From a virus (lineage: Duplodnaviria; Heunggongvirae; Uroviricota; Caudoviricetes), in IMG/VR virus record IMGVR_UViG_2861043448_000004, positions 1 to 21,351 of that record: 21,351 nucleotides of DNA; one strand, given 5' to 3'. Positions 1,668 to 21,351 of this stretch are shown here, piece by piece (positions within the stretch are counted from its first letter, which is position 1; every line of letters begins with the position of its first letter). A program made the position numbers and the translations under genes. The notes under the pieces were generated by a model, which was not told the origin of the DNA, did not search any database, and saw nothing but the letters and a program-made list of their open reading frames with translations.

Positions 1668-2765
1668 ATGGCGTACTATAACATAGAGAAACGACTAAAA
1701 TCCGATGGCACACCACGCTATCGCTGTAATGTGATTATCAAAGAAAAAGGTGTTATCACTTACAGGGAAAGCAAAACATTCCCTAAACATGCTCATGCCA
1801 AAACATGGGGCGCACAGAAAGTGATGGAATTAGATCTATATGGCATTCCATCATCAAATGCTGTTGACGGACTTACAGTCCGTGACTTACTACACAAATA
1901 TTTAAATGACCCAAATGCCGGAGGTAAAGCAGGCCGTACTAAAAGATATGTGCTGGAACTGCTTATGGATAGTGACATCTCCGCGATCAAACTATCTGAA
2001 CTGACAGAAAATGACGTAATTGAACATTGCAGGCTAAGAAACAACGCTGGTGCAGGCCCAGCAACAGTCAGCCACGATGTTAGTTATCTTGGCAGTGTTC
2101 TGGATGCGGCAAAACCTGTATACGGAATCAATTACACATCAAACCCGGCGAAAAGCGCTCGTCCATATCTACTTAAACTCGGTTTGATTGGTAAATCAAA
2201 CCGTCGTAATCGTAGACCAGCATCTGATGAACTGAACATGCTCATTGAAGGCCTTCAACAACGATCTACTCATAAATGCTCAAAAATTCCGTTCGTTGAT
2301 ATCCTCAAATTTTCTGTGTGGTCCTGTATGCGAATCGGAGAAGTATGCCGGTTACGATGGGAAGATCTCGACCAGGAACAAAAATCTATACTAGTAAGAG
2401 ACAGGAAAGATCCACGTAAAAAGGAAGGCAACCATATGAAAGTTGCCTTGCTTGGGGAAGCCTGGGATATCGTCCAGCGACAACCCAAAAAATCAGAATT
2501 CATTTTTCCATATAACAGCACTTCTGTTACCGCAGGATTTCAGAGGGTAAGAAGCAAATTAGGTATTAAAGATCTGAGATACCATGATTTGCGTAGAGAA
2601 GGGGCAAGTCGCTTATTTGAGGCTGGTTTTAGTATTGAGGAAGTCGCTCAGGTTACAGGGCATCGTTCATTAAACGTGCTATGGCAGGTATATACCGAAC
2701 TGTATCCGAAATCTTTACATAATCGTTTTGAAGAACTCCAAAGGAGCAGAAATAAGACCTCTTGA
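1668..2765 (+). CDS. int: Phage integrase, tyrosine recombinase (dusA-associated family)
   Basis: 365-aa ORF starting 88 bp upstream of and divergent from the dusA start; C-terminal catalytic region HDLRREGASRLFEAGFSIEEVAQVTGHRSLNVLWQVY carries the tyrosine recombinase H-x-x-R ... H ... Y signature; GAGG Shine-Dalgarno 7 nt upstream of the ATG. Confidence 0.9.
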   Translation: MAYYNIEKRLKSDGTPRYRCNVIIKEKGVITYRESKTFPKHAHAKTWGAQKVMELDLYGIPSSNAVDGLTVRDLLHKYLNDPNAGGKAGRTKRYVLELLMDSDISAIKLSELTENDVIEHCRLRNNAGAGPATVSHDVSYLGSVLDAAKPVYGINYTSNPAKSARPYLLKLGLIGKSNRRNRRPASDELNMLIEGLQQRSTHKCSKIPFVDILKFSVWSCMRIGEVCRLRWEDLDQEQKSILVRDRKDPRKKEGNHMKVALLGEAWDIVQRQPKKSEFIFPYNSTSVTAGFQRVRSKLGIKDLRYHDLRREGASRLFEAGFSIEEVAQVTGHRSLNVLWQVYTELYPKSLHNRFEELQRSRNKTS

Positions 2766-2825: not shown

Positions 2826-3074
2826 ATGCGTATTGAAATCTGCATAGCCAAAGAAAAAATGACTAAAATGCCAACCGGTGCTGTGGATGCGTTAAAGGAA
2901 GAATTAACCCGACGCATCAGTAAACGTTATGACGATGTAGAAGTGATCGTAAAAGCCACCAGCAACGATGGCCTTTCTGTTACGCGCACCGCTGATAAAG
3001 ATTCAGCTAAAACTTTTGTTCAGGAGACTCTGAAAGATACCTGGGAGTCTGCTGACGAGTGGTTTGTTCATTAA
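2826..3074 (+). CDS. DinI-family SOS-response protein (prophage copy)
   Basis: 82-aa translation [11 protein letters not shown]...[11 protein letters not shown] resembles E. coli DinI (MRIEVTIAK...TWESADDWFV) end to end; AGGGGA Shine-Dalgarno 5 nt upstream; preceded by LexA boxes. Confidence 0.85.
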
Positions 3075-3105
3075 GTTCATCATCTCTGGACACCATTCAC
3101 TTGTA

Positions 3106-3134
3106 TTGACTTTAAGATCATTAAATTGTAATAA
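3106..3134 (+). promoter_or_regulatory. Candidate sigma70 promoter for the membrane protein-RT operon
   Basis: TTGACT at 3106..3111, 17-nt spacer, TAATAA(T) at 3129..3135; sits about 160 nt upstream of the ATG at 3297. Confidence 0.4.
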
Positions 3135-3296
3135 TTCAAAGGGATGGGGCAGGTTTTTCCTCTTGCGCATGCAAGGGCGGCTCTGATAATGAACAGTAAT
3201 ATTTTACTGTTGAGCTTATGCTCACTGATCCTGCCGGGCAGGATGTTCAACGGTTCCAATATATCCTGCCCCTTCCGCTTTTAAAAAGGATCTTTT

Positions 3297-3848
3297 ATGC
3301 ATGACAATATTTGGTTTACATATAAAGCACGTATCCAAGCGCACCATCGACTAGAATGGCTTGAAAAACACTCTCAATTTATCCTCGTTTGGTATGCTAT
3401 ATTGAGTGCGGTACTTTCAATTGTAACGTTGCGATTTCCAAAGGTTCTAGGAGATAATACAGATGTCGTTGCGGCGATACTTTCAGTGGCTCTACTGGGT
3501 ATTTCTCTGATCGTATCTAACCTAGATTTTCGTGGTCGAGCAATAGCCATGAGAAGGAATTATATTGCACTACAGCGACTCTATTTTGACATTACCACCA
3601 GTCAACAGTTATCTCTTGAACAGAAAGAAAAATATTTTAATTTGCTCAATGAGGTTGAGAATCACCGTGACATAGATGATAAAATTTCAAGGGTAACTCA
3701 AGTTGGACTTAAGACGAGGATCCCCACACAAAAAGAAAAAATAATTGTTATTTTATGGATATTACTTCGAATATTTATTACTGCCGCACTTTATATACTC
3801 CCATTAATATATCTTTGGATTGACTATGACTGCAAGCAGAATTTTTAA
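3297..3848 (+). CDS. Predicted multi-pass inner-membrane protein, partner of the reverse transcriptase
   Basis: 183-aa ORF with AGGA Shine-Dalgarno 6 nt upstream; hydrophobic helices FILVWYAILSAVLSIVTL, VVAAILSVALLGISLIVSNL and C-terminal IIVILWILLRIFITAALYILPLIYLWI; AT-rich codon usage unlike flanking genes; 3' end overlaps the RT start by 23 nt. Confidence 0.7.
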   Translation: MHDNIWFTYKARIQAHHRLEWLEKHSQFILVWYAILSAVLSIVTLRFPKVLGDNTDVVAAILSVALLGISLIVSNLDFRGRAIAMRRNYIALQRLYFDITTSQQLSLEQKEKYFNLLNEVENHRDIDDKISRVTQVGLKTRIPTQKEKIIVILWILLRIFITAALYILPLIYLWIDYDCKQNF

Positions 3849-5196
3849 AAAGTCATTCTCGAAAAAAAATCTTCTAAAAGTATACTCTGAAAAAATCAAA
3901 GAATCAGGAGCGATTGGCATAGATCGGATTCGCCCATCAAAACTTGATTTGACAATAAAAAATGAGATCACTTTCATTTTTGAAAAGGTTAATTCTGGCA
4001 ATTACAAATTTACAGCATATAAAGAAAAATTAATATCTAAAGGCGCTAACTCTACACCCAGACAGATTTCCATACCAACTGCTAGGGACAGAATTACTCT
4101 TAGAGCTCTCTGTGAATGCCTTACGGAAATATATCCTAAGTCCAGATTAAAACTACCACATACAGTAATTGACTCATTGAAAGAAGCATTAAACAACAGT
4201 CTATATGCTGAATATGCAAAAATAGATCTTAAAAGTTTCTATCCTTCAATTGAACATAAATTGATAATTAATGCAATAAAAAATAAAATTAGAAAAAAAG
4301 AAATTAGACAGTTAATAACATCATCATTAATCGTGCCTACTGTAAGTGGAACCACAGGAAGCAAAGGTATCCCTAATAATACCAGAGGAGTACCTCAGGG
4401 ATTAGCGATATCAAACATTTTAGCTGAAATATCACTATCTAATTTCGATGATGAAATCAATAAAATGCATGACATATGGTACATGCGATACGTTGATGAC
4501 ATTCTTATTTTAACACCAAAATATCAAGCAACAAAAATAGCTTCTCATATCATTGATAAGCTTCAATCATTAAATTTAAACCCACATCCATTAAATGAAG
4601 AGAACTCAAAATCCAAAGTAGGCAGTTTGGATGAAAGTTTTAACTTTTTGGGATACCACATAGAAAATCGAGAATTATTGATAAAACATGAGAGCATTCT
4701 TAGATTTGAGTCATCCTTAGCAAAAATTTTTACTGCATATAGGCACGCTCTACTACAAGCTAAAAGTAAGCGTGATAAAGAACGAGCTGTTGCATATTGT
4801 CAGTGGAAACTAAATCTCAGAATTACGGGATGTGTGTTTGAAGGTAAACGATTGGGATGGGTATCGTACTTCTCACAAATAACCTCAACAGCTCAACTTC
4901 GCTCTGTTAATCATACTATCAATAATCTTATCCGCCGATTCGGCCTTTCATCAGAAATAAAACCAAAATCTTTGATTAAAACTTTCTATGAACTCCGCAG
5001 AGGTAGAGCGGAGACTTTTAAATACATACCTAACTTTGACAATCTACATATATCTCAGAAACGAGAACTTGTTTCTATGTGGATAGGTAAAGAGAAGGAA
5101 AAAAAACTTAGCAATAGTGAAATAGAGAGGAAGTTTAAATTTAAAATTGCGAAATCAGTAAAAGAGCTTGAAGAGGATATTTCAGGAATATCATAG
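3826..5196 (+). CDS. Reverse transcriptase (defence-associated, non-retron motif pattern)
   Basis: 456 aa from the ATG at 3826 (track ORF begins at a TTG at 3820). RT motifs are all present: GIDRI, RQISIPTARDRITLRAL, YAEYAKIDLKSFYPSI, GVPQGLAISNILAEISL, YMRYVDDILIL (YVDD catalytic box), FNFLGYHI (FLG-type motif 7 rather than the retron VTG); about 170-aa C-terminal extension; AT-rich. Confidence 0.85.
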   Translation: MTASRIFKKSFSKKNLLKVYSEKIKESGAIGIDRIRPSKLDLTIKNEITFIFEKVNSGNYKFTAYKEKLISKGANSTPRQISIPTARDRITLRALCECLTEIYPKSRLKLPHTVIDSLKEALNNSLYAEYAKIDLKSFYPSIEHKLIINAIKNKIRKKEIRQLITSSLIVPTVSGTTGSKGIPNNTRGVPQGLAISNILAEISLSNFDDEINKMHDIWYMRYVDDILILTPKYQATKIASHIIDKLQSLNLNPHPLNEENSKSKVGSLDESFNFLGYHIENRELLIKHESILRFESSLAKIFTAYRHALLQAKSKRDKERAVAYCQWKLNLRITGCVFEGKRLGWVSYFSQITSTAQLRSVNHTINNLIRRFGLSSEIKPKSLIKTFYELRRGRAETFKYIPNFDNLHISQKRELVSMWIGKEKEKKLSNSEIERKFKFKIAKSVKELEEDISGIS

Positions 5197-5259
5197 ATAT
5201 GTAATCCATTAAGTCATTAAAATATATCGCAATAAACACACTATTTAAACTCACAAACC

Positions 5260-5300
5260 AGCCGCAGTATCCTGCCATGGCAAGTTGCTGCGGCTTTTTA
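5260..5300 (+). terminator. Candidate intrinsic terminator after the RT gene, possibly bidirectional
   Basis: AGCCGCAG (5260..5267) pairs with CTGCGGCT (5288..5295), inner palindrome TGCCATGGCA in the loop, followed by TTTTT at 5295..5299. Confidence 0.5.
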
Positions 5301-5303
5301 TGT

Positions 5304-5597
5304 TCAACGGATCAACAGCCAGATCAGAAGACACGCTACCATCGGCACAGCAAAATCCATCAGGCTTGCCACATCCCATGCGCGTGGATCAAAACCGCCC
5401 CACCACGGCATGTTAATCCGCTTGCCATGCCCGAACATTTCAATCCAGCGATATTATGCTTGGGTGTGTTCGCCCGCAATGAAGAACGTACAACTGGCTA
5501 TCGCTCCGTAAACCCAGTTTCCGGTAAAAAGCCCCACCAGTATCTGCGCAGCCACAGCACAAAGTGCATGAAGGAAAGGTGTTATACCCATTTTCAT
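5304..5597 (-). pseudogene. Small membrane protein gene interrupted by an in-frame TAA
   Basis: Minus-strand frame reads MKMGITPFLHALCAVAAQILVGLFTGNWVYGAIASCTFFIAGEHTQA, then TAA (5454..5456), then continues in the same frame YRWIEMFGHGKRINMPWWGGFDPRAWDVASLMDFAVPMVACLLIWLLIR to a TGA at 5304..5306. Hand translation; family not recognised. Confidence 0.35.
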
Positions 5598-5633: not shown

Positions 5634-8477
5634 TTATTTAGAGGCAAGCGCCGCCTCAATTGCAGATAATCTTTGTTTTAATTCTGCGTTTTCTTCTTCC
5701 AGCGCGGTAACGCGATCATCTGTTTCACGGGCGACCTGAACAAGTAAGCCCGTCACGGCGGCGTAGTCAACATTCAGATAACGTGTTTCTTCACGTAATT
5801 CATTGCCGTCAACCGTTGGTCCCTGCAACTCTTTACCGTAATGAGTGAATGAGCCTACCGCTTCCGGTATTGCCTCCATTGCTTCCTGTGCAATAACACC
5901 AGCGTAAGGCAGTCCGTTTTCCTTAAGTGTGTAGGTGTACCCGTTCATTTTACGGATAGCTTCGGTTGCGTCACTGATAATCTGAATATTGTCTTTCAGC
6001 TCGCGGTCTGATAACTGATTCAGTGTTGTACAGTTAATAGCACCGTTTACATCAAACAGCTGACCTGACGATGTTTTTTGAGCATAAAACAGATACGCGG
6101 CAGACGTTCCAACCTCAAAAACGTTTTGTCGATCACCTGAACCCCACACCTTGACAGCAAATGGTAGTTCTGTATTACCTAAGTTCTGTAAAACAAAACG
6201 ATTGCCAGTCCCTGTTTGTTTTGTAAGAGTTAAATCAACAGTTGAGTTAACCTCATCCTTGTTGATAGTGAGCGCCTGCGCTTTAGCACCGTTAACAGCA
6301 CCTGTTTTGAGTTGAACCGCGCCGTCATTACCATTTAGCAGTATCTCAGCTCCGCTAAAGAAATTTTTTAGCGACAGCATCTTACTTACGCCGACTGATG
6401 AACCCAACGCCCACGCGAGAGAATTACCGGTGCTATCAAACCCACGTACAAAGCAATCCATTTTGCTATAGTCTGACGTGCTTCCAAGGACATCAATCCG
6501 CCCTCCGCCAGATTTTATCGGGTTAGATGTGGTTAATGACCTGACAGCAAGAGCGGTAGATGAATTGAGATCGTCTACTGTTAGTAATTTCTTCCATTCC
6601 TGCGTCGTTCCATTTTCAATTGTTCTTCCCCAAAAACCGGAATTGCGGCCTCCGAACTGCACAGCATAATTTTTACTAAATTGAACATGAATGCCGCCAA
6701 GAACCATAGAGCCTGCCGGGCCGTTTGTACTGCCTGCAATTGGTCTAAATTTGTCGACGTTATCAGTATGCTGAGCGTTCCAGTCTCGTCCTGTTTTTGT
6801 AAGCAGTCCTAATGTCGTGTCGAGCGCTTCGGTTAAAGTAAGGTTTTTAAATTTAACTGCGCTACTTTCGCCAAGACTTAAGTTGTTTCGCGCATCTTCT
6901 ACTGTTGTCGCACCTGTACCTCCTTGCCCAACAGCTAATGGCAACCAGCCAGTGCCATTATGACAACCCCACAAACCAGATTTGGAAACCTGTAAGCGTG
7001 GTGCGCCTGAAGAATACGTAGAATATACGTAAGTTGTTTCTTTTCCCTCTTCAACCCTTTCTGTTGATACATCTCTCTTCCATTCAGACCAGGTACCGCT
7101 ACCTCCTTCATATATTCGTCTATAAGTAATTCCCGGATTATTATAAGGGTGGTACACCTGAACGCAGGAAGAAGCAGTGTTGGCTCTCGTTTGGAGCACT
7201 ATTAAAGCGCCCGCCAGACCGATTGGGTAATTTAATTCTTCTGTTGCGTAAGCGCTCGTTGGTTGTTGATAGAAACCAGAATATTCACCGGTAAGGGTGT
7301 TTAGGTCAGTATTAGCAAGGCCAGCTTTTTGCTCATACATTACCCGCAAGTTCGCACGTGCTTGCTCGATAGTTCTTCCACCAGTACCACCCTGGGCTAA
7401 ACCTAACGGAGACCATTGTCCAGAAGAAGAATCATAAACCCCCCAACTCCCGTTAGTATGGATTTCAAAGAAACGATCACCAGTTGGACCATACATACGA
7501 GTTGTTGATTCATTTTGACCAAAGCGGCTTAATTCATCTCTGCGGGTATGACGTATCCATTGCGGGCCAGAACTTTGGCTGTAAATGTACGAATACAATG
7601 ATTTTGTATCTGAACCAACAAATAGACCGGAATATCTTTTTGTTGACACTTCTGATCTAACTATATAACCAGAAATAAGATTATCCCCGGCACTAGACGC
7701 TACTGATGGATAACCTTTCGCTGAGATGTAAATCCTGATAAATCCAATATAACCTGATGGCTCAACAGAGATATCAGTGCAGGTCATAGCAACTTCACCA
7801 AGACCAATATTGTTACCAACAACGGATTGTGCCTGGTTGCGATAATTAAGTGCGTCCGCTGCAGATTTCGCCGCGTTTGTTTCACTGGATTTAGCATTAG
7901 TTTCGCTGCTCTTTGCTGCTGCCTCGCTATTTTTCGCGTTGGTTTCTGATTTTTTGGCTGCTGTCGCGGAGTTTGCCGATGCAGTTTGTGAGGCCGCTGC
8001 CGCCTGTGCGCTGTTATCCGCATTCGTCTCAGACGTTTTTGCGGCCTTCGCGGAATTTCCTGCCGCCGTTGCCGAAGAGGCTGCACTACTGGCGCTCGAG
8101 GCTGCGCTCGTTTCTGATGATTTCGCTGCCTCTTTTGAGGCCGCCGCATCCCGGGCTGAGGTGGCAGCTTCTGACGCTTTCGTGGTCGCGGTGGATGCAG
8201 AAGTGGCTGCAGATTTTTGTGACGCTGCAGCATTCGTTTCTGACGTTTTCGCCGCACCGGCACTGGTAGCCGCCGCGCTTTTTGAGGACTCTGCAGCGGC
8301 AGCACTTTTTGATGCTTCAGTAGCCTTTGTTGATGCCGTTCCTGCGCTGGAAGACGCTGACTGAGCCGACGTCGCGGCCTGCCCGGCTGATGTGCTGGCT
8401 GCACGTGCTGAGCCTGCAGCATCAGTCGCATGGGTTCCCAGAGCACCACGCTGGCCGACTGCTCCGCACGGGTGCAT
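5634..8477 (-). CDS. stf: Side tail fibre protein lacking its N-terminal region, with C-terminal intramolecular chaperone (peptidase S74-like) domain
   Basis: Ala/Ser-rich repeats (SARAASTSAGQAATSAQ..., KTSETNA repeats) align with the part of lambda Stf that starts around residue 150 (from memory); two GQGGTG...ARxNL collar repeats; C-terminal LSDRELKDNIQ...VDYAAVTGLLVQ with ENAELKQRL coiled coil is typical of the self-cleaving chaperone domain. The first ATG directly follows the in-frame TGA of the upstream terminase fragment. Confidence 0.75.
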   Translation of the reverse strand: MHPCGAVGQRGALGTHATDAAGSARAASTSAGQAATSAQSASSSAGTASTKATEASKSAAAAESSKSAAATSAGAAKTSETNAAASQKSAATSASTATTKASEAATSARDAAASKEAAKSSETSAASSASSAASSATAAGNSAKAAKTSETNADNSAQAAAASQTASANSATAAKKSETNAKNSEAAAKSSETNAKSSETNAAKSAADALNYRNQAQSVVGNNIGLGEVAMTCTDISVEPSGYIGFIRIYISAKGYPSVASSAGDNLISGYIVRSEVSTKRYSGLFVGSDTKSLYSYIYSQSSGPQWIRHTRRDELSRFGQNESTTRMYGPTGDRFFEIHTNGSWGVYDSSSGQWSPLGLAQGGTGGRTIEQARANLRVMYEQKAGLANTDLNTLTGEYSGFYQQPTSAYATEELNYPIGLAGALIVLQTRANTASSCVQVYHPYNNPGITYRRIYEGGSGTWSEWKRDVSTERVEEGKETTYVYSTYSSGAPRLQVSKSGLWGCHNGTGWLPLAVGQGGTGATTVEDARNNLSLGESSAVKFKNLTLTEALDTTLGLLTKTGRDWNAQHTDNVDKFRPIAGSTNGPAGSMVLGGIHVQFSKNYAVQFGGRNSGFWGRTIENGTTQEWKKLLTVDDLNSSTALAVRSLTTSNPIKSGGGRIDVLGSTSDYSKMDCFVRGFDSTGNSLAWALGSSVGVSKMLSLKNFFSGAEILLNGNDGAVQLKTGAVNGAKAQALTINKDEVNSTVDLTLTKQTGTGNRFVLQNLGNTELPFAVKVWGSGDRQNVFEVGTSAAYLFYAQKTSSGQLFDVNGAINCTTLNQLSDRELKDNIQIISDATEAIRKMNGYTYTLKENGLPYAGVIAQEAMEAIPEAVGSFTHYGKELQGPTVDGNELREETRYLNVDYAAVTGLLVQVARETDDRVTALEEENAELKQRLSAIEAALASK

Positions 8478-9890
8478 TCATTCAGTGTTTCCTGCCGGAT
8501 AGCTGGCCGGATCAATTCGCTGGCTCTCCCCGTCGCTGTCACCGCGCAATGACTGCGTGATGTTGTAACGATCAATAATCCAGCGTTCGCCACGGCTGCC
8601 ATAGCCCGTTACCTGAACCACAAAACGGCGATGACGTCCCGCCTGCACATCCACTGTCGCCACAAGGAAATTAACGCCATCCGGCACACTGCGGGAAGGA
8701 ACTGGCTCTGCCCGCTGCTCAAGCAATTCACTTTTTCGTTGCTCCATGCTGGCGCGGGGAAGATAAGGTAATCCCCAGTCGGTATTGATAACCGTCTTGA
8801 GTGTCTCTTCACTTCCGGTTGTCTCGTATTCCTGTTCTGCAGTAAGCAGTTTGTAAACGAGTTGCGAGAGTGTCTGATAAGCAGCTGCCGGCCCCTCCAT
8901 CCAGAATGACGCAATACGTGAACGCCGGGGATCACCATAACGACTGCCATCTGCATTGATGGATTCACCATCCCGTAACCAGACCCCACGTCCGTTCAGC
9001 TCGCGTTTTTGTTCAGGCAAAATCCGTCCTGAACAGGAAGGACACTGAATATAAGCCGCCTCACTTGCCAGCACAGGATCGGCAATATCACGGAAACCAG
9101 CAACCACATCGCCGCAGGGCTGAAAATACTCACCACAGTGTGGACAGGGCCAGTACCAGCGACGGCGATCGCCACGGTTATAGAGCGACAGGATCCCCGT
9201 GGTTGGTGGAGCCTCATGCGGTGAAGTCCGTCGCCATTTCACATCCTTCACATCCCTGCCGGGGGAACTCTCCACCAGCGTCATACCACTGGACATAAAT
9301 GTGGTGGTACGTTTTGAGGCAAGAGAGAAGGCATCCCCCTCACCATCAATATCTTCCGGAAAACGGTCATAATCCGTCAGCGCCACGCATTTATAATCTG
9401 ATGAAGACATGATATTGACTGACGGCCAGCCGATTTTCAGGTAGTTGCCAGCAAGGAATGTTCTGTCATAAACGTTGTTGTCATTTTTGTTCGGACTCAG
9501 GCGACTGACCACTTCCGGGCTGACGCGAAACGTTCTGGCGAGTCGTTTTTTGGAGTGTTCGCGGGCTTTTTCCTCCGTCATCTGAATGATCAGCATATCA
9601 GCAGGATCGCAAATCACGTTGTAAATCACCCAGCCGTCAATCAGGCCGATAGTCTTGCCGGTTCGTGCCGGGCCAACAAATATCACTGCGTCGTATTCAC
9701 GCGAGGCCAGGCAGTTCATAGGCTCAATAACATACGGTGCCACCAGCGGATCCCACGGGACTGAGTTCCCTGCCCCCATGGGCACCCGCATATACTGAGC
9801 AACGGCATCAGCAACCCGCATTCGTCTCGGTGCGCGAAGGATATAACCTGAATCGGTTCGTGCTGCCTTTGCGGTTTCCTGATTCAGCAT
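8478..9890 (-). pseudogene. Terminase large subunit (GpA family), C-terminally truncated
   Basis: 470 aa against about 640 in lambda gpA; contains GPARTGKT Walker-A-like motif, zinc-finger-like WPCPHCGEYFQ ... CPSCSG and WIIDRYNI resembling lambda gpA ACPHCGEE and SWLIDRQII; start overlaps the small-subunit stop (TAATG) with GGAGGAG Shine-Dalgarno; ORF ends abruptly at TGA directly abutting stf. Confidence 0.75.
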
Positions 9891-14460: not shown

Positions 14461-14693
14461 GCTGCACCTCCGAGATGCTTCATGTTTTTTCCGGAGCGAA
14501 AGGCTATAAGCGGCATACTGACGCGGTAATTACGGCCCAGCGGTTCACAAATCACCTTCTGGCATTCACGGTCAACCAGGCTAACACGTAGAACATGCCC
14601 TGCAGGTGTGGTGTACCACTGCCCAACTGTAGGAATTGATGTTTTTTTACGCTGAAGCAAACGGCAAATATTGAGGATCAACGGATTAAGCAT
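14457..14693 (-). CDS. Hypothetical small phage protein (78 aa)
   Basis: ORF with ATGA-type overlaps to both neighbours in the early-right operon; no recognised family. Confidence 0.45.
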   Translation of the reverse strand: MLNPLILNICRLLQRKKTSIPTVGQWYTTPAGHVLRVSLVDRECQKVICEPLGRNYRVSMPLIAFRSGKNMKHLGGAA

Positions 14694-15522
14694 GACGATG
14701 CCCTCCGCTGATATTCAGGAGACGGTGAATATGAAAATTAGCCTTATCCGCCAGACGAATACGTTCAGCCTGCAAGTTAAGAAGGGTTTCTACCAGAACT
14801 TGATGCGCCTGCGGATCCGAAAGAGTTACCTTGCGCAGAGCACGTAGTGCAGTTGTTACATAACTGAGTTTATGTAAGTCTTCATCATTCAGACGAGTGA
14901 GGGCTGGGACAGTAGCCATGATGGCAGCCTCCGATAACAGTGAATTACCTTCACCACCGGAAACGCCAATTTCGCTGGTGGTGAACTGAACGGGGTTGGC
15001 GTAACCGGCGTTATCGGAAACCGGCGCACCTTTCGGTGCCCCCGTCCAGCCCACCATAATTTGGGTGTGCACAGACGCAGACGATAAAAAAGACGCTGGC
15101 GCGTCATATATCGCCGATAACATTTCCAGGACGCCAATCCCGGCACCCGCTTTATAAGGTGCCTGAACAGTGTAACGTCCCGGAATGGCAGAATCAATGT
15201 GCTGGTGGTCCTTCACACTCAACAAAATCACGCCTGAATTTCCACAAAGGACTAAAGCACTCATGCGGGTAGTCTTTGCGAAGATAGATAACGCGCTGTG
15301 TTTCTGGCTCCCAACGAATAACATGGACATAAAGCCCTCTTCCGTCACGAAACCAGCGGTTAAGTTCCTGCACAACTCGCCCCCCACAGTCAGGTAAAGT
15401 TCTCTGTGGTTACTTACAGCCAGGTGATTTGGTAATCTGCATTCATGCCGTAACAACAGGTGTTCAGCGACACTGACCACCAGCTGTTGCGACAAACGGT
15501 TATTTGCCGTTAAACTGTTCAT
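14686..15522 (-). CDS. Hypothetical phage protein (278 aa), possibly YdaU-like
   Basis: Long intact ORF, translationally coupled to the upstream gene; family assignment tentative and from memory only. Confidence 0.5.
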   Translation of the reverse strand: MNSLTANNRLSQQLVVSVAEHLLLRHECRLPNHLAVSNHRELYLTVGGELCRNLTAGFVTEEGFMSMLFVGSQKHSALSIFAKTTRMSALVLCGNSGVILLSVKDHQHIDSAIPGRYTVQAPYKAGAGIGVLEMLSAIYDAPASFLSSASVHTQIMVGWTGAPKGAPVSDNAGYANPVQFTTSEIGVSGGEGNSLLSEAAIMATVPALTRLNDEDLHKLSYVTTALRALRKVTLSDPQAHQVLVETLLNLQAERIRLADKANFHIHRLLNISGGHRHA

Positions 15523-18998: not shown

Positions 18999-19172
18999 TT
19001 TCATTACTGCAAATGCCCCTGCGGGGGCGTTTACGGAAGCGATAATTTTAACTATTGCCGCCCCTATAAAGAACCATTAAACAATAACGTGACGAAGCTA
19101 TTGATAGTAAATGAAGCACTTGCAAAATAATTGCATTGCGTATATATACACATGTGTTGTATTACAGCGATA

Positions 19173-19967
19173 ATGGTAAAGCAAATGATTAACTCTGAAG
19201 CAATTGAGCAACTAATGTGGCTATGGTCCTTATTTGACATTAAATTCTTATCTATTCTTGCCGCTGCCTTCACTATATATTTTGGCGTGCAAAAAATATC
19301 AAAAAAGGTGACAGTGTCGTATTCAGCAAATGCAAGTAGAATATATGACATGCATATATCAACCATAATCCTGAATAATAAAAGAGATAATGCAATTGCT
19401 ATATCTTCAATCAATATGGAGGTTGAAGGTAAAGGGATACTACAAGTTATTAAATTTGACTCCCCTCTTCTTTTAAAGAACTATGATTCTTTAAAAGTTG
19501 AACCACCAAAATTTAGCAGCCTTTATAATAATGATGGCGTAGTTAAGTTAGATATTTATGATAAGTTTCATTTTTATATAATCACGACATCTGGAGATGA
19601 AATTAAATGTATTTCTGAAAATAAATATGTGGCACCAAACATGGAAAACAAAATAGCTACAGACATAAGAAAATTTAATGGCATTGTCTTAACAAACAGA
19701 ATGTCTTATATTTTTTTCTATGCAAATGACAACAGAGAGAAATACTGCATAATAGATGTTTCATTGTTCATAAATGGTGACAACCCATTTCATTTTAATT
19801 TTTTAAAAGAAGATGAATTAAGAGATTTTTCTAGCATCCTTATTAGTTACGGATATCACCAACAGTTTAAAAGTTATGCATTGTTTAAAATAGACAACCA
19901 TCTTGCTCCTTCTTTGGTTTTAAATAAATCAATGATAGAAAATAATATTATTGAAATGAATAAGTAA
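19173..19967 (+). CDS. AT-rich membrane-anchored protein of unknown function (cargo gene)
   Basis: Start uncertain (ATG at 19173 or 19185; track ORF begins at a TTG at 19131); one N-terminal hydrophobic helix LMWLWSLFDIKFLSILAAAFTIYFG then about 230 soluble residues rich in N/K/I/F/Y; strongly AT-biased codons relative to neighbours. Confidence 0.55.
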   Translation: MVKQMINSEAIEQLMWLWSLFDIKFLSILAAAFTIYFGVQKISKKVTVSYSANASRIYDMHISTIILNNKRDNAIAISSINMEVEGKGILQVIKFDSPLLLKNYDSLKVEPPKFSSLYNNDGVVKLDIYDKFHFYIITTSGDEIKCISENKYVAPNMENKIATDIRKFNGIVLTNRMSYIFFYANDNREKYCIIDVSLFINGDNPFHFNFLKEDELRDFSSILISYGYHQQFKSYALFKIDNHLAPSLVLNKSMIENNIIEMNK

Positions 19968-20287: not shown

Positions 20288-20315
20288 TAACCCGTATATG
20301 TACGGGTTATTTTTC
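20288..20315 (+). terminator. Candidate intrinsic terminator between convergent genes
   Basis: AACCCGTAtatgTACGGGTT hairpin followed by ATTTTTC; overlaps the stop codon of the minus-strand gene. Confidence 0.45.
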
Positions 20316-20855
20316 TTTATCACTATCTTTTCTTGATTTGAACAATCCACTAACAACGAAACCAACCAAACCAACAATACTAATTGTACTTGTACCTAGT
20401 AATGCAACGATCGCTTCAACTGGAGCCTTTCCTTCATGTGCAATAAGAAACGATGTAAACATTGCGACAACGAATAAGCACCAACACGACATAAACCAAA
20501 CCGTGAATGATGCCATTTTTGTCCGGAGCTCATTGTCTATTTCTTTACCAGTTGCGTCAGCTATCTTATCCCGTACTTGTGATTTGAGCATATCAAGCTG
20601 AGCTTGAAGACTGTCCATTCTGTTCTGCTGCATAAACTCATGCAATGCACCAGTATTAGAACCAAACTCTTCTTCCTCCAGAATAGCCTTATTTTCTGAA
20701 GAAGAATCATCATCGCGTTCATGATTAGACGGCTCAAATGCGGATTCAAAAGCCTGCTCTTGACTGTCAGTAGAGTTTAAGGATGCTTCAGAGCGACCAT
20801 TTTCAACACCTGCGGCCGCTCCGATCAGTTTATAGATATCTGAATTATGAGACAT
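20307..20855 (-). CDS. Small membrane protein with acidic N-terminal region; candidate toxin partner of the Panacea protein
   Basis: 182 aa; N-terminal half acidic and polar with predicted coiled coil (LQAQLDMLKSQVRDKIADATGKEIDNELRTKM); C-terminal two hydrophobic helices (FTVWFMSCWCLFVVAMFTSFLIA and AIVALLGTSTISIVGLVGFVVSGLF); starts 22 bp downstream of the Panacea gene on the same strand. Confidence 0.55.
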   Translation of the reverse strand: MSHNSDIYKLIGAAAGVENGRSEASLNSTDSQEQAFESAFEPSNHERDDDSSSENKAILEEEEFGSNTGALHEFMQQNRMDSLQAQLDMLKSQVRDKIADATGKEIDNELRTKMASFTVWFMSCWCLFVVAMFTSFLIAHEGKAPVEAIVALLGTSTISIVGLVGFVVSGLFKSRKDSDKEK

Positions 20856-20877: not shown

Positions 20878-21351
20878 TCAGAGGCCCTGACATTGCTGTC
20901 GGTTATTCAATAAATCATGATAATAAGCCTTGATCGCATCATTTGAGATGATCGACGAGCCAATACCATTATAAGCTTGTGACCAAGGCGTACCTGGCAT
21001 ATGAGTTAGAGTTGATAACTCAATTCCATTTTTCGAGCCGTAAAACTTATAAACAGCCCCGATAATGCTCTCTGCTTGCGGATCCATAGTAACGATGCCA
21101 CCAAAAGGAGCTACTGCTACATTCGTAACAGGTTTATTCCCATAGTCTTTGAAAGCATCGTACATTCCAGGAATAACTGGACCGTACTTCCACGCGGAGA
21201 CACATTCATTGAGCAAAGGCTTACCTGTTAATGCTAAATAGTAACCATGGGCAATATAAGTAAGCTTCTGCAGTTGCATGTGGGTCAGAGGATTATGATG
21301 TTGGTTTCCCAACGTTATGAATTTATTGGCTATTTGTACCGGACTGTACAT
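20878..21351 (-). CDS. Panacea-domain (DUF4065, SocA-like) protein; candidate antitoxin
   Basis: 157 aa; MQLQKLTYIAHGYYLALTGKPLLNECVSAWKYGPVIPGMYDAFKDYG matches the Panacea core pattern (KLQKLLYyaqG ... pLf ... AW.yGPV ... Y). Start codon is the last three bases of the window, so the upstream region is unseen. Confidence 0.65.
   Translation of the reverse strand: MYSPVQIANKFITLGNQHHNPLTHMQLQKLTYIAHGYYLALTGKPLLNECVSAWKYGPVIPGMYDAFKDYGNKPVTNVAVAPFGGIVTMDPQAESIIGAVYKFYGSKNGIELSTLTHMPGTPWSQAYNGIGSSIISNDAIKAYYHDLLNNRQQCQGL

Follow-up and report, generated by a model that had tools for sequence, protein, structure and literature searches.

A probable, apparently intact DRT10 anti-phage system carried as cargo in a defective prophage

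Genes and features at the locus

The locus described in this report lies in a 21,351-nucleotide viral sequence (IMG/VR record IMGVR_UViG_2861043448_000004), which we call the window. It comprises two overlapping protein-coding genes, for a SLATT-family membrane protein and a reverse transcriptase (RT), and a predicted noncoding RNA (ncRNA) upstream of them. Its features are listed below by window position, with the evidence for each in parentheses.

3075..5229, + strand: cargo insert of 2,155 bp, holding the whole DRT10 module (empty site in sister prophage L021)
3106..3135, + strand: predicted sigma-70-like promoter of the ncRNA, TTGACT / 18-nt spacer / TG-AATAAT (consensus and positional conservation)
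3142..3278, + strand: predicted DRT10 ncRNA, about 137 nt (ends placed by register with Eco3DRT10; comparative fold)
3142..3153, + strand: basal stem, 5' strand, partner 3265-3276 (helix 1, two-sided changes at 8 of 11 pairs)
3158..3180, + strand: stem-loop 2 (helix 2, 9 pairs, 3 compensatory)
3192..3211, + strand: stem-loop 3 (helix 3, 6 pairs, 2 compensatory)
3212..3223, + strand: stem-loop 4 (helix 4, 4 pairs, 1 compensatory)
3228..3244, + strand: stem-loop 5, proposed template-boundary element (helix 5, 5 pairs, 1 compensatory)
3248..3256, + strand: predicted template A-B, CAAC-GGUUC, ncRNA nt 107-115 (register with Eco3DRT10)
3257..3260, + strand: predicted realignment segment A', CAAU, nt 116-119 (register and pattern in homologues)
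3265..3276, + strand: basal stem, 3' strand, partner 3142-3153 (consensus fold and MFE)
3297..3848, + strand: SLATT_5 membrane protein, 183 aa (PADLOC RTasSLATT, Pfam and NCBIfam SLATT_5, hydropathy)
3826..5196, + strand: UG17 (DRT10) reverse transcriptase, 456 aa (PADLOC RT_UG17, E = 1.2e-158; near-identity to OKX54664)
4489..4500, + strand: catalytic YVDD codons, RT residues 222-225 (sequence; kept in 15 of 15 homologues)
5191..5193, + strand: Ser456 codon, last RT residue, the priming residue in Eco3DRT10 (C-terminus ...EEDISGIS)

An initial annotation, made from the sequence alone, had drawn attention to the gene pair. The 183-aa open reading frame (ORF), the 456-aa RT, their 23-nt overlap (3826-3848) and the YVDD box were all found as it gave them. 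Its remark that both genes are AT-rich relative to the prophage backbone also holds: the G+C content is 36.1% for the SLATT gene and 32.6% for the RT gene, whereas the window as a whole has 46.0%, and the integrase, DinI-like and tail-fibre genes nearby have 42-48%. Matches to curated families lie far above threshold, and the SLATT-RT pair recurs in 188 of 5426 complete E. coli genomes; the pair is therefore not a chance arrangement of ORFs.

The upstream gene encodes a protein that matches PADLOC RTasSLATT (E = 1.5e-56), Pfam SLATT_5 (E = 1.3e-28, 100 bits; cutoff 29.5) and NCBIfam SLATT_5 (136 bits; cutoff 60). Comparison with SLATT families, which the initial annotation had proposed, thus assigns the protein to SLATT_5 above the curated cutoffs. 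Kyte-Doolittle hydropathy (19-residue window) marks three stretches as hydrophobic (approximately residues 25-48, 54-79 and 146-177), in agreement with the three transmembrane helices originally predicted. No SLATT structure was found when the PDB was searched by sequence.

The RT was compared with profiles of the RT classes, as had likewise been suggested. The best model was PADLOC RT_UG17, matched over its full length (526 bits, E = 1.2e-158; residues 3-458 of the 458-aa translation, model positions 1-429 of 429), and the runner-up PADLOC model was Drt3a (127 bits, E = 2.6e-37). Pfam RVT_1 covers RT residues 74-281. About 175 aa remain beyond it, which fits the C-terminal extension of ~170 aa described earlier. 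Motif 7 is, as was noted, FLG (residues 274-276) and not VTG, and PQG occurs at residue 190. The terminal serine is the same in all 15 homologues. The longest RT ORF begins at TTG 3820 and has 458 aa, whereas RefSeq and the homologues start at the ATG; Tang et al. remarked on an identical two-residue start misannotation in the Eco3DRT10 RT (PMC12632851).

These results bear on the idea that the enzyme is the RT of a retron or of a group II intron-type mobile retroelement. Matches of this kind do exist, to a group II RT/maturase (TIGR04416, 144 bits; cutoff 300) and a retron St85 RT (58.7 bits; cutoff 235), and the PDB sequence search, which found no DRT10 structure, gave group II and retron-type RTs as the entries closest in sequence. 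However, both scores fall far under the curated cutoffs, and Rfam searches over the whole window found neither a group II intron nor a retron msr/msd RNA. The RT also lacks a maturase or endonuclease domain, and its motif 7 is not of the VTG type. With the thresholds missed and the cognate RNAs absent, we rejected this explanation, which has virtually no chance of being correct. The initial annotation had correctly favored the UG/Abi or DRT class over a retron, group II intron or DGR: the RT belongs to UG17.

Relation of the cassette to DRT10 and to other systems

The association of UG17 with SLATT was on record by 2022 (PMC9226505), and phage defence by the pair was demonstrated, and the name DRT10 given, in 2025 (PMC12632851, Tang et al.). 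The defence function, the ncRNA, serine priming and telomerase-like repeat addition are the subject of publications of 2025-2026, so DRT10 was already known in all of these respects. Phage defence has been demonstrated for Eco1-3DRT10 (PMC12632851) and for E3659 UG17-A (bioRxiv 10.64898/2026.04.29.721553).

The closest of these systems is Eco3DRT10 of E. coli 703491 (RT OKX54664), which protects from BASEL phages and depends on the RT active site, SLATT and the ncRNA (PMC12632851). Its RT differs from that of the window at 5 of 399 comparable residues (98.7% identity), and Table S1 of Tang et al. contains E. coli RTs that are one position away from the window RT over the stretch shown there. 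The two loci share the order of ncRNA, SLATT_5 gene and overlapping gene for a 456-aa UG17 RT, as well as the architecture and numbering of the ncRNA, the YVDD box and the C-terminal Ser456. They are set apart by the five RT residues and by two template bases. NCCP12480 (L018) has an RT that is 1 of 397 residues from that of Eco3DRT10, and it has the Eco3 template; compared with the window, 4 positions of its 201-nt ncRNA region and 4 residues of its SLATT are changed.

We conclude that the locus very probably holds all three parts of the anti-phage system DRT10, in an Eco3DRT10-like form of UG17 subtype A that appears intact and is carried as cargo. We see nothing in the sequence that would argue against membership in DRT10. 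The module consists of the ncRNA, the SLATT_5 membrane protein and the UG17 RT. It has three parts and not the two of the initial annotation, which overlooked the ncRNA at 3142-3278, because this RNA is present and is essential in the published system.

The initial annotation had instead proposed that the two genes form a new RT-based abortive-infection module, as yet uncharacterised and apart from the described DRT and Abi systems. By sequence alone, the gene order and domains are unlike those of retron Ec48 or DRT1, and Pfam returns only the generic RVT_1 family. This reading is nevertheless extremely improbable and was rejected, since the family assignment and identity of the RT already refute it: RT_UG17 matches at full length, and the enzyme is 98.7% identical to a characterised one. 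The window also has the ncRNA with its A-B-A' pattern, and the serine used for priming. It had also been held that no known RT system fits the order and domains, but a SLATT gene followed by an overlapping RT gene is the predominant published UG17 architecture. The RT thus lies firmly within a described type whose partner and gene order it shares, which is the finding that the initial annotation had itself named as decisive against its proposal. Its suggestion that the membrane protein is the effector fared better, in that SLATT is the proposed effector, and is needed for defence, in the published, near-identical Eco3DRT10 (PMC12632851).

More distant relatives help to place the system. UG17-A is a subtype found in Pseudomonadota, to which the system of Escherichia sp. 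E3659 also belongs (Sanchez-Nieto et al. 2026, bioRxiv 10.64898/2026.04.29.721553). That system shares the ncRNA-SLATT-RT order, needs all three parts for defence and makes tandem-repeat cDNA; by its description, it differs in lineage, in its ncRNA (143 nt, six stem-loops in the model) and in a 7-nt repeat. DRT9 (UG28) is another class 2 UG RT that makes protein-primed repetitive DNA from a short ncRNA template, and Tang et al. called its ncRNA fold similar to that of DRT10 (PMC12632851). DRT9 differs in making poly-dA from a poly-U template, in priming on tyrosine and in forming a hexamer, and the PADLOC Drt9 model scores the window RT at 69 bits, compared with 526 for UG17. DRT3 (UG3+UG8) does not fit: NCBIfam Drt3a reaches 112.6 bits against a cutoff of 200, and no second RT (Drt3b) occurs in the insert, which holds a single RT gene.

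Retron Ec48, which consists of an RT and a 2TM effector, also couples RT-made DNA to a membrane effector that aborts infection. The window differs in having no msr/msd RNA and an RT that is not of the retron type, and its effector lies upstream and belongs to SLATT_5. With telomerase (TERT and telomerase RNA), DRT10 shares a short template, a downstream alignment segment, a structured 5' boundary and repeat-addition processivity, although it primes on its own serine and not on a chromosome end, is smaller, at about 40% of hTERT, and acts in defence against phages together with a membrane effector. This likeness is a mechanistic resemblance; Tang et al. proposed that it is evolutionary too (PMC12632851).

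The noncoding RNA and its template

The Eco3DRT10 ncRNA is 137 nt long and lies upstream of SLATT (PMC12632851). We aligned the corresponding regions of 15 loci from six genera (Escherichia, Xenorhabdus, Photorhabdus, Buttiauxella, Pseudomonas and Stutzerimonas), placing the SLATT starts of the homologues by tblastn anchoring, and derived a consensus fold with RNAalifold, with slid pairing partners and 500 shuffles as controls. The consensus is a basal stem that encloses four stem-loops, for a total of five helices. Pairing is possible in 98.5% of cells, as opposed to 48-54% with slid partners, and compensatory changes occur at 15 of 35 pairs, a count matched by none of the 500 shuffles. The single-sequence MFE fold of the 137-nt unit alone has helices that match the consensus. 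An MFE fold of the whole 222-nt intergenic region, which placed GGGGCAGG on the wrong CCUGCC copy and had no basal stem, was discarded; the comparative fold and that of the 137-nt unit both settle the pairing.

The promoter-like sequence at 3106-3135 is predicted to drive the ncRNA, on the basis of its consensus match and conserved position. It agrees with the consensus at 10 of 12 positions and has an extended -10 TG, and its -10 element ends 7 nt ahead of 3142. A -10-like hexamer (TAGAAT, TATAAT or CATACT) is found at the equivalent spot in the Pseudomonas, Photorhabdus and Xenorhabdus homologues. At gathering thresholds, Rfam searches of the whole window gave no match within 3075-5300, which puts the DRT10 ncRNA outside all curated Rfam families; the only matches in the window were C4 antisense RNA and isrK, near 15 kb.

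With nt 1 set at 3142, segments A (nt 107-110), B (111-115) and A' (116-119) fall at positions equal to those published for Eco3DRT10. The A-B-A' pattern begins 3 nt past stem-loop 5, which lies directly 5' of the template loop, and in Eco3DRT10 the repeat products disappear when this stem-loop alone is scrambled (PMC12632851). The sole A-A' pattern common to all 15 homologues is (U)CAA...(U)CAA, with a period of 9-10 nt. We therefore take this as the register, in which the product of the window allele is predicted to be protein-primed ssDNA, (GAACCGTTG)n.

The repeat sequence is a prediction, because the template of the window differs from that of Eco3DRT10 at two positions. The Eco3 template was deduced from the published cDNA motif, GAATCATTG, and then found present in E. 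coli genomes. The window template, CAACGGUUC, differs from the Eco3 allele, CAAUGAUUC, at 3251 and 3253 (nt 110 and 112), and the predicted repeat of GAACCGTTG instead of GAATCATTG follows from these changes. In the window allele, A and A' match by 3 nt and a G:U wobble, as compared with 4 nt in Eco3DRT10.

A DRT10 system could also use another register, in which GUUC...GUUC (3245-3248 and 3253-3256) would yield an 8-nt repeat, (CGTTGAAC)n, or an 8/9-nt mixture with imprecise periodicity. No exact A-A' match in the loop of the window is longer than GUUC-AACG-GUUC, and cryptic re-annealing sites make Eco1DRT10 imprecise, according to Tang et al. (PMC12632851). We consider this unlikely. The GUUC repeat is missing in 12 of the 15 homologues, whereas CAA...CAA occurs in every one; in Eco3DRT10, a comparable UUC...UUC pair does not prevent the CAAU register from giving precise 9-nt repeats (PMC12632851); and copying would have to reach the base directly adjoining stem-loop 5.

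Returning to the 9-nt register, both template alleles are present among the 188 E. coli genomes that carry the pair: 154 have the window template and 34 have that of Eco3. No co-variation was found between template allele and SLATT. The window-type template is found with two SLATT variants that are 20 residues apart, and the Eco3 template with a SLATT just 4 residues from that of the window. The lack of co-variation disfavors a sequence-specific reading of the repeat by SLATT. The existence of two discrete alleles in near-identical systems leaves a slim chance that the repeat sequence itself matters. If so, selection could favor repeats that elude recognition or degradation by a phage factor, or that adjust how SLATT is engaged, and the window would represent the commoner specificity, other than the studied Eco3 one.

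Genomic setting, proposed mechanism and meaning

The insert lies between a DinI-like gene and tail-fibre genes in a defective prophage at dusA. Sister dusA prophage L021, in which the site is empty, is homologous to the window up to 3074 and again from 5230, with 35 nt in between. Position 3074 is the stop codon of the DinI-like gene, and integrase+DinI homology in 724 genomes stops there too. In sister prophages, the corresponding site is empty or holds other cargo. The cassette is thus a discrete 2.16-kb cargo, in keeping with the suggestion that it was acquired separately. The location next to the integrase, which had also been emphasized, is seen in the window, but not at yecD and prfC, where prophage ends carry the cassette without an adjoining integrase; what stays constant beside it is the DinI-like gene and the genes for tail fibres. 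A megablast search of 50,697 phage records with the cassette found no match, and it was seen in chromosomal prophages only. RefSeq labels the two genes "SLATT domain-containing protein" and "reverse transcriptase domain-containing protein", and the ncRNA has no annotation.

The state of the prophage might suggest that the cassette is a silent or decaying remnant, nonfunctional in its source strain. The structural module is gone, so that a tail-fibre gene abuts a truncated terminase gene, and in AR434 the phage genes next to the cassette are pseudogenes. However, both ORFs are intact and keep every residue needed for catalysis and priming, the promoter and helices of the ncRNA appear undamaged, and the cassette is 100% identical across many unrelated E. 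coli isolates. Selection for the cargo would be expected to preserve it as the phage genes around it decayed. Decay is accordingly very unlikely, and an intact DRT10 remains our preferred reading.

The steps of the mechanism are experimental for the 98.7%-identical Eco3DRT10, with the repeat DNA demonstrated both in vivo and in vitro (PMC12632851), and their extension to the window allele is by homology. The 137-nt ncRNA would be transcribed from its own promoter and bound by the RT, which would use the hydroxyl of its own C-terminal Ser456 as the primer for DNA synthesis; in Eco3DRT10, the S456A mutation abolishes both cDNA synthesis and defence (PMC12632851). The RT would then copy the 9-nt template, CAACGGUUC, whose 5' limit would be fixed by the adjoining stem-loop 5. 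The nascent DNA would be released, and its 3' end would re-anneal at the downstream CAAU (A'). Telomerase-like cycling through these steps would produce long ssDNA tandem repeats, (GAACCGTTG)n, attached covalently to the RT.

SLATT, as the proposed pore-forming effector, would abort the infection. In one published model, the cDNA would restrain SLATT, which would be freed by loss of the cDNA upon infection. In another, build-up of the cDNA would activate SLATT, with host SbcB limiting the build-up and a phage SSB-like protein promoting it; the SbcB dependence and the SSB-like phage trigger were demonstrated in E3659, not in the Eco3 type (bioRxiv 10.64898/2026.04.29.721553). The two preprints are at odds on whether the cDNA rises or falls upon infection, so any model that couples repeat DNA to SLATT is tentative across the family.

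Control of the SLATT effector by repeat DNA is a question for the whole family, which the window sequence does not advance, and the value of the locus as a discovery is small, the defence function, serine priming and repeat addition having been published for a 98.7%-identical enzyme. Its use lies partly in annotation, given that the RefSeq gene labels are generic and the ncRNA is unlabelled. In addition, the window carries the commoner natural template allele, which is predicted to specify a repeat other than the one that has been studied.

A UG17 reverse transcriptase and its SLATT partner

The cassette is a DRT10 system, a class that is already known. Its two protein-coding genes overlap as the initial annotation had described:

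3297..3848, + strand: SLATT_5 membrane protein gene, 183 aa (ORF listing)
3826..5196, + strand: reverse transcriptase (RT) gene, 456 aa from the ATG at 3826, frame end at 5196 (ORF with the RefSeq start)

With the ATG at 3826, which is the RefSeq choice and is likewise used in all homologues, the RT gene shares 23 nt with the upstream gene. Other features claimed for the pair were also recovered. The RT carries YVDD at residues 222-225 and FLG at residues 274-276, and the Pfam RVT_1 domain spans residues 74-281, leaving a long C-terminal extension of ~175 aa. A Kyte-Doolittle scan of the small protein finds three hydrophobic segments, the number of membrane segments proposed, and both genes are AT-rich (36.1% GC for the SLATT gene and 32.6% for the RT gene, vs 46.0% for the window).

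The earlier leaning toward the UG/DRT class was correct. The PADLOC RT_UG17 model aligns with the RT over the full length (E 1.2e-158, 526 bits), with Drt3a as the second-best PADLOC model (127 bits), and the RT scores far under the curated cut-offs of the NCBIfam models for group II intron RT, Drt3a, Drt2 and retron St85 RT. The small protein exceeds the cut-offs of SLATT_5 in both Pfam (100 bits vs 29.5) and NCBIfam (136 bits vs 60), and is also matched by the PADLOC RTasSLATT model (E 1.5e-56). The earlier view that the module is uncharacterised is therefore wrong, because a UG17 RT with a SLATT_5 partner in this order is the published DRT10 system; a match of this kind had been named beforehand as grounds for rejecting that view.

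In 2022, UG17 RTs were reported to be strongly associated with SLATT proteins and enriched in defense islands; the same paper noted that some E. coli strains cannot do without the exonuclease SbcB because of a UG17 system (PMC9226505). Three UG17 operons from E. coli were subsequently found to protect against BASEL phages, and the system was named DRT10 (Tang et al., bioRxiv 2025, PMC12632851). Defense requires the RT active site, the SLATT gene and a 137-nt ncRNA upstream of the SLATT gene; the C-terminal Ser456 of the RT is the primer, and the product consists of kilobase-long tandem repeats of a 9-nt unit made in a telomerase-like cycle, which is directed by an A-B-A' pattern (A and B are copied, A' is the re-annealing segment) in the template loop just 3' of stem-loop 5 (PMC12632851). 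Another UG17-A system has the same three parts and 7-nt repeats, and is controlled by host SbcB and an SSB-like phage trigger (Sanchez-Nieto et al., bioRxiv 2026). Tang et al. (PMC12632851) found that infection lowers cDNA and proposed that cDNA restrains SLATT; Sanchez-Nieto et al. (bioRxiv 2026) found that infection raises first-strand cDNA and proposed that its accumulation activates SLATT.

The window RT is nearly identical to that of the model system Eco3DRT10 (OKX54664), with 5 differences in the 399 residues available for comparison. In the supplement of Tang et al. (PMC12632851), an entry describes the OKX54664 annotation as two residues too long at the N-terminus, and the TTG/ATG start ambiguity of the window RT corresponds to the same two-residue overannotation. 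Table S1 of that paper includes E. coli RTs that, over the stretch shown, differ from the window RT at a single position. The cassette with its flanks (3100-5300) occurs in 188 of 5426 complete E. coli genomes, many copies being 100% identical.

For Eco3DRT10, binding of the ncRNA by the RT, serine priming, repeat addition along A-B-A', constitutive single-stranded repeat DNA and the need for SLATT and ncRNA in defense have all been demonstrated (PMC12632851). By likeness, the window RT would bind its ncRNA, begin DNA synthesis on its own serine and add repeats of the unit GAACCGTTG along A-B-A'; the single-stranded repeat DNA would be constitutive, and defense would need both SLATT and the ncRNA.

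The upstream noncoding RNA and its predicted template

Both genes of the proposed two-part module stand, but a third part, an upstream ncRNA with a conserved fold and compensatory pairs, had been missed. It lies with a promoter-like site in the 222-nt gap that separates the SLATT gene from a DinI-like gene:

ending at 3135, + strand: sigma-70-like promoter, TTGACT / 18 nt / TG-AATAAT (consensus match)
3142-3153 paired with 3265-3276, + strand: ncRNA basal stem, enclosing four stem-loops (consensus fold)
3158-3180, 3192-3211, 3212-3223 and 3228-3244, + strand: the four stem-loops (consensus fold)

An RT scan with one genome per species yielded 14 full-length relatives (58-84% identity), belonging to Xenorhabdus, Photorhabdus, Buttiauxella, Pseudomonas and Stutzerimonas. 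YVDD and the terminal serine, the last residue, are invariant in the 15 RTs, window included. In 14/14 relatives, the region upstream of SLATT aligns to window 3140-3287, and in other genera a -10-like hexamer resides at an equal distance upstream of the ncRNA. Standard pairs occupy 98.5% of pair cells of the fold, vs 48-54% when partners are slid by 1-3 columns. Compensatory changes occur at 15 of 35 pairs, a count reached by none of 500 shuffles, and 8 of the 11 basal-stem pairs covary.

The last stem-loop is followed by a loop of ~20 nt. When nt 1 is set at 3142, 7 nt past the -10, this loop reads CAAC-GGUUC-CAAU at nt 107-110, 111-115 and 116-119, and these A, B and A' positions coincide exactly with those published for Eco3DRT10 (U110, C116, A117, U119; PMC12632851). 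The repeat product is predicted to be (GAACCGTTG)n. Following one round of copying, the 3'-terminal ...GTTG can anneal to A' (CAAU) by three Watson-Crick pairs plus a G:U pair; Tang et al. observed tolerance of a fourth-position mismatch (PMC12632851). The loop could also be read as GUUC-AACG-GUUC, with an 8-nt period, but this register is unlikely: 12 of the 15 homologues lack it, whereas all 15 have CAA...CAA.

From the published Eco3 cDNA motif GAATCATTG, the Eco3 template is deduced to be CAAUGAUUC. E. coli NCCP12480, whose RT matches the Eco3DRT10 RT at all but 1 of 397 residues, has this allele (T at 3251, A at 3253). Across the 201-nt ncRNA region, NCCP12480 and the window show four differences, two of them inside the 9-nt template. 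A 37-mer across the loop cleanly divides the 188 carriers: 154 match the window exactly and 34 have two mismatches. Against an 81-mer carrying the Eco3 template, those 34 genomes show 99% identity or more. Among complete E. coli genomes, the template loop (3245-3260) exists in exactly two alleles: CAACGGUUC, whose carriers include the window and ST131, and CAAUGAUUC, whose carriers include the Eco3DRT10 type, IHE3034 and CE10. The window allele is the commoner one (154 vs 34 genomes). It is shared with Xenorhabdus, and one Photorhabdus has it with an extra U (CAACGGUUCU). The allele of the template is not linked to SLATT divergence: SLATTs 20 residues apart share the window template, and the Eco3 template is also paired with a SLATT just 4 residues off that of the window. 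This agrees with the published tolerance of template mutations (PMC12632851).

Insertion site and neighboring elements

The following features flank the cassette or lie elsewhere in the window:

542-1579, - strand: dusA, at the start of the window
1668-2765: tyrosine integrase gene (profile matches)
2826-3074: DinI-like gene, after the integrase gene (profile matches)
5634-8477, - strand: tail-fibre gene, 947 aa, with a C-terminal S74 chaperone domain, directly abutting the large-terminase gene
8478-9890, - strand: large-terminase gene, 470 aa, nuclease domain truncated, adjoining the tail-fibre gene
14974-15162, - strand: C4 antisense RNA (82.8 bits) and isrK (63.7 bits), side by side (Rfam)
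20878-21351, - strand: Panacea/SocA antitoxin-domain gene, with a 182-aa ORF directly downstream

Integrases specific for dusA insert at its 5' end and restore the gene. Judging from gene layout, the arrangement in the window is presumably of this type; dusA is intact, and 89 nt separate its 5' end from the integrase gene start. Compared with an empty-site sister dusA prophage (L021), homology ends at 3074 and returns at 5230, which delimits the module as a discrete insert of 2,155 bp. The integrase and DinI pair occurs in 724 genomes, vs only 188 for the cassette. The DinI-like/tail-fibre site (3074/3075, 5229/5230) of dusA prophages carries variable cargo: DRT10 in the window, the type III secretion (T3SS) effectors EspM2 and EspW in a second sister (L020), and none in L021 and a third (L022), where a short gap, 35 nt of non-homologous sequence in L021, leads from DinI to the genes on the tail-fibre side. 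In yecD and prfC prophages, the cassette again lies between a DinI-like gene and tail-fibre genes, without an adjacent integrase. The hotspot proposed initially is therefore supported, although what stays constant around it is the DinI/tail-fibre end of lambdoid prophages rather than the integrase. Deletion of the associated tyrosine recombinase had no effect on DRT10 defense (PMC12632851).

The window prophage is defective, having lost portal, head and tail genes. Between insert and tail-fibre gene, 5304-5591 (- strand) matches a hypothetical gene of 95 aa. NCCP12480 has an intact copy; the copy in AR434, a genome identical to the window over 3100-5300 (cassette and flanks), has an internal stop and is annotated as a pseudogene. 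In Edwardsiella piscicida (L016, 3001-3147), an isolated 49-residue fragment matches RT residues 298-346 at 94% identity. No full-length RT surrounds this fragment, which appears to be left over from a DRT10 RT gene.

A near-consensus LexA box (TACTGTATACAAATACAGTG, CTGT-N8-ACAG) at 2794-2813 sits between a promoter-like TTGACA at 2762 and the DinI-like gene directly upstream of the insert, and this gene is therefore probably SOS-inducible. Read-through from it into the DRT10 module after DNA damage is conceivable.

The C4 antisense RNA/isrK pair, inside or beside an Ash-family ORF (14686-15522), marks a P1/P7- and Gifsy-type immunity/antirepressor control region within the lambdoid remnant. 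A second AT-rich stretch (28-35% GC at 19.0-20.2 kb) contains a 278-aa ORF at 19131-19967 (+ strand), for which Pfam gave no match, and the neighboring 182-aa ORF at 20307-20855 (- strand) has no match either; together with the Panacea/SocA gene, the latter may form a PanA-type toxin-antitoxin pair at the other prophage end.

RefSeq labels the two proteins in carrier genomes only as "SLATT domain-containing protein" and "reverse transcriptase domain-containing protein". Because a sequence search found no solved structure for either the SLATT protein or the RT, and Rfam holds no family for the DRT10 ncRNA, the gain in practice is an improved annotation of three features.
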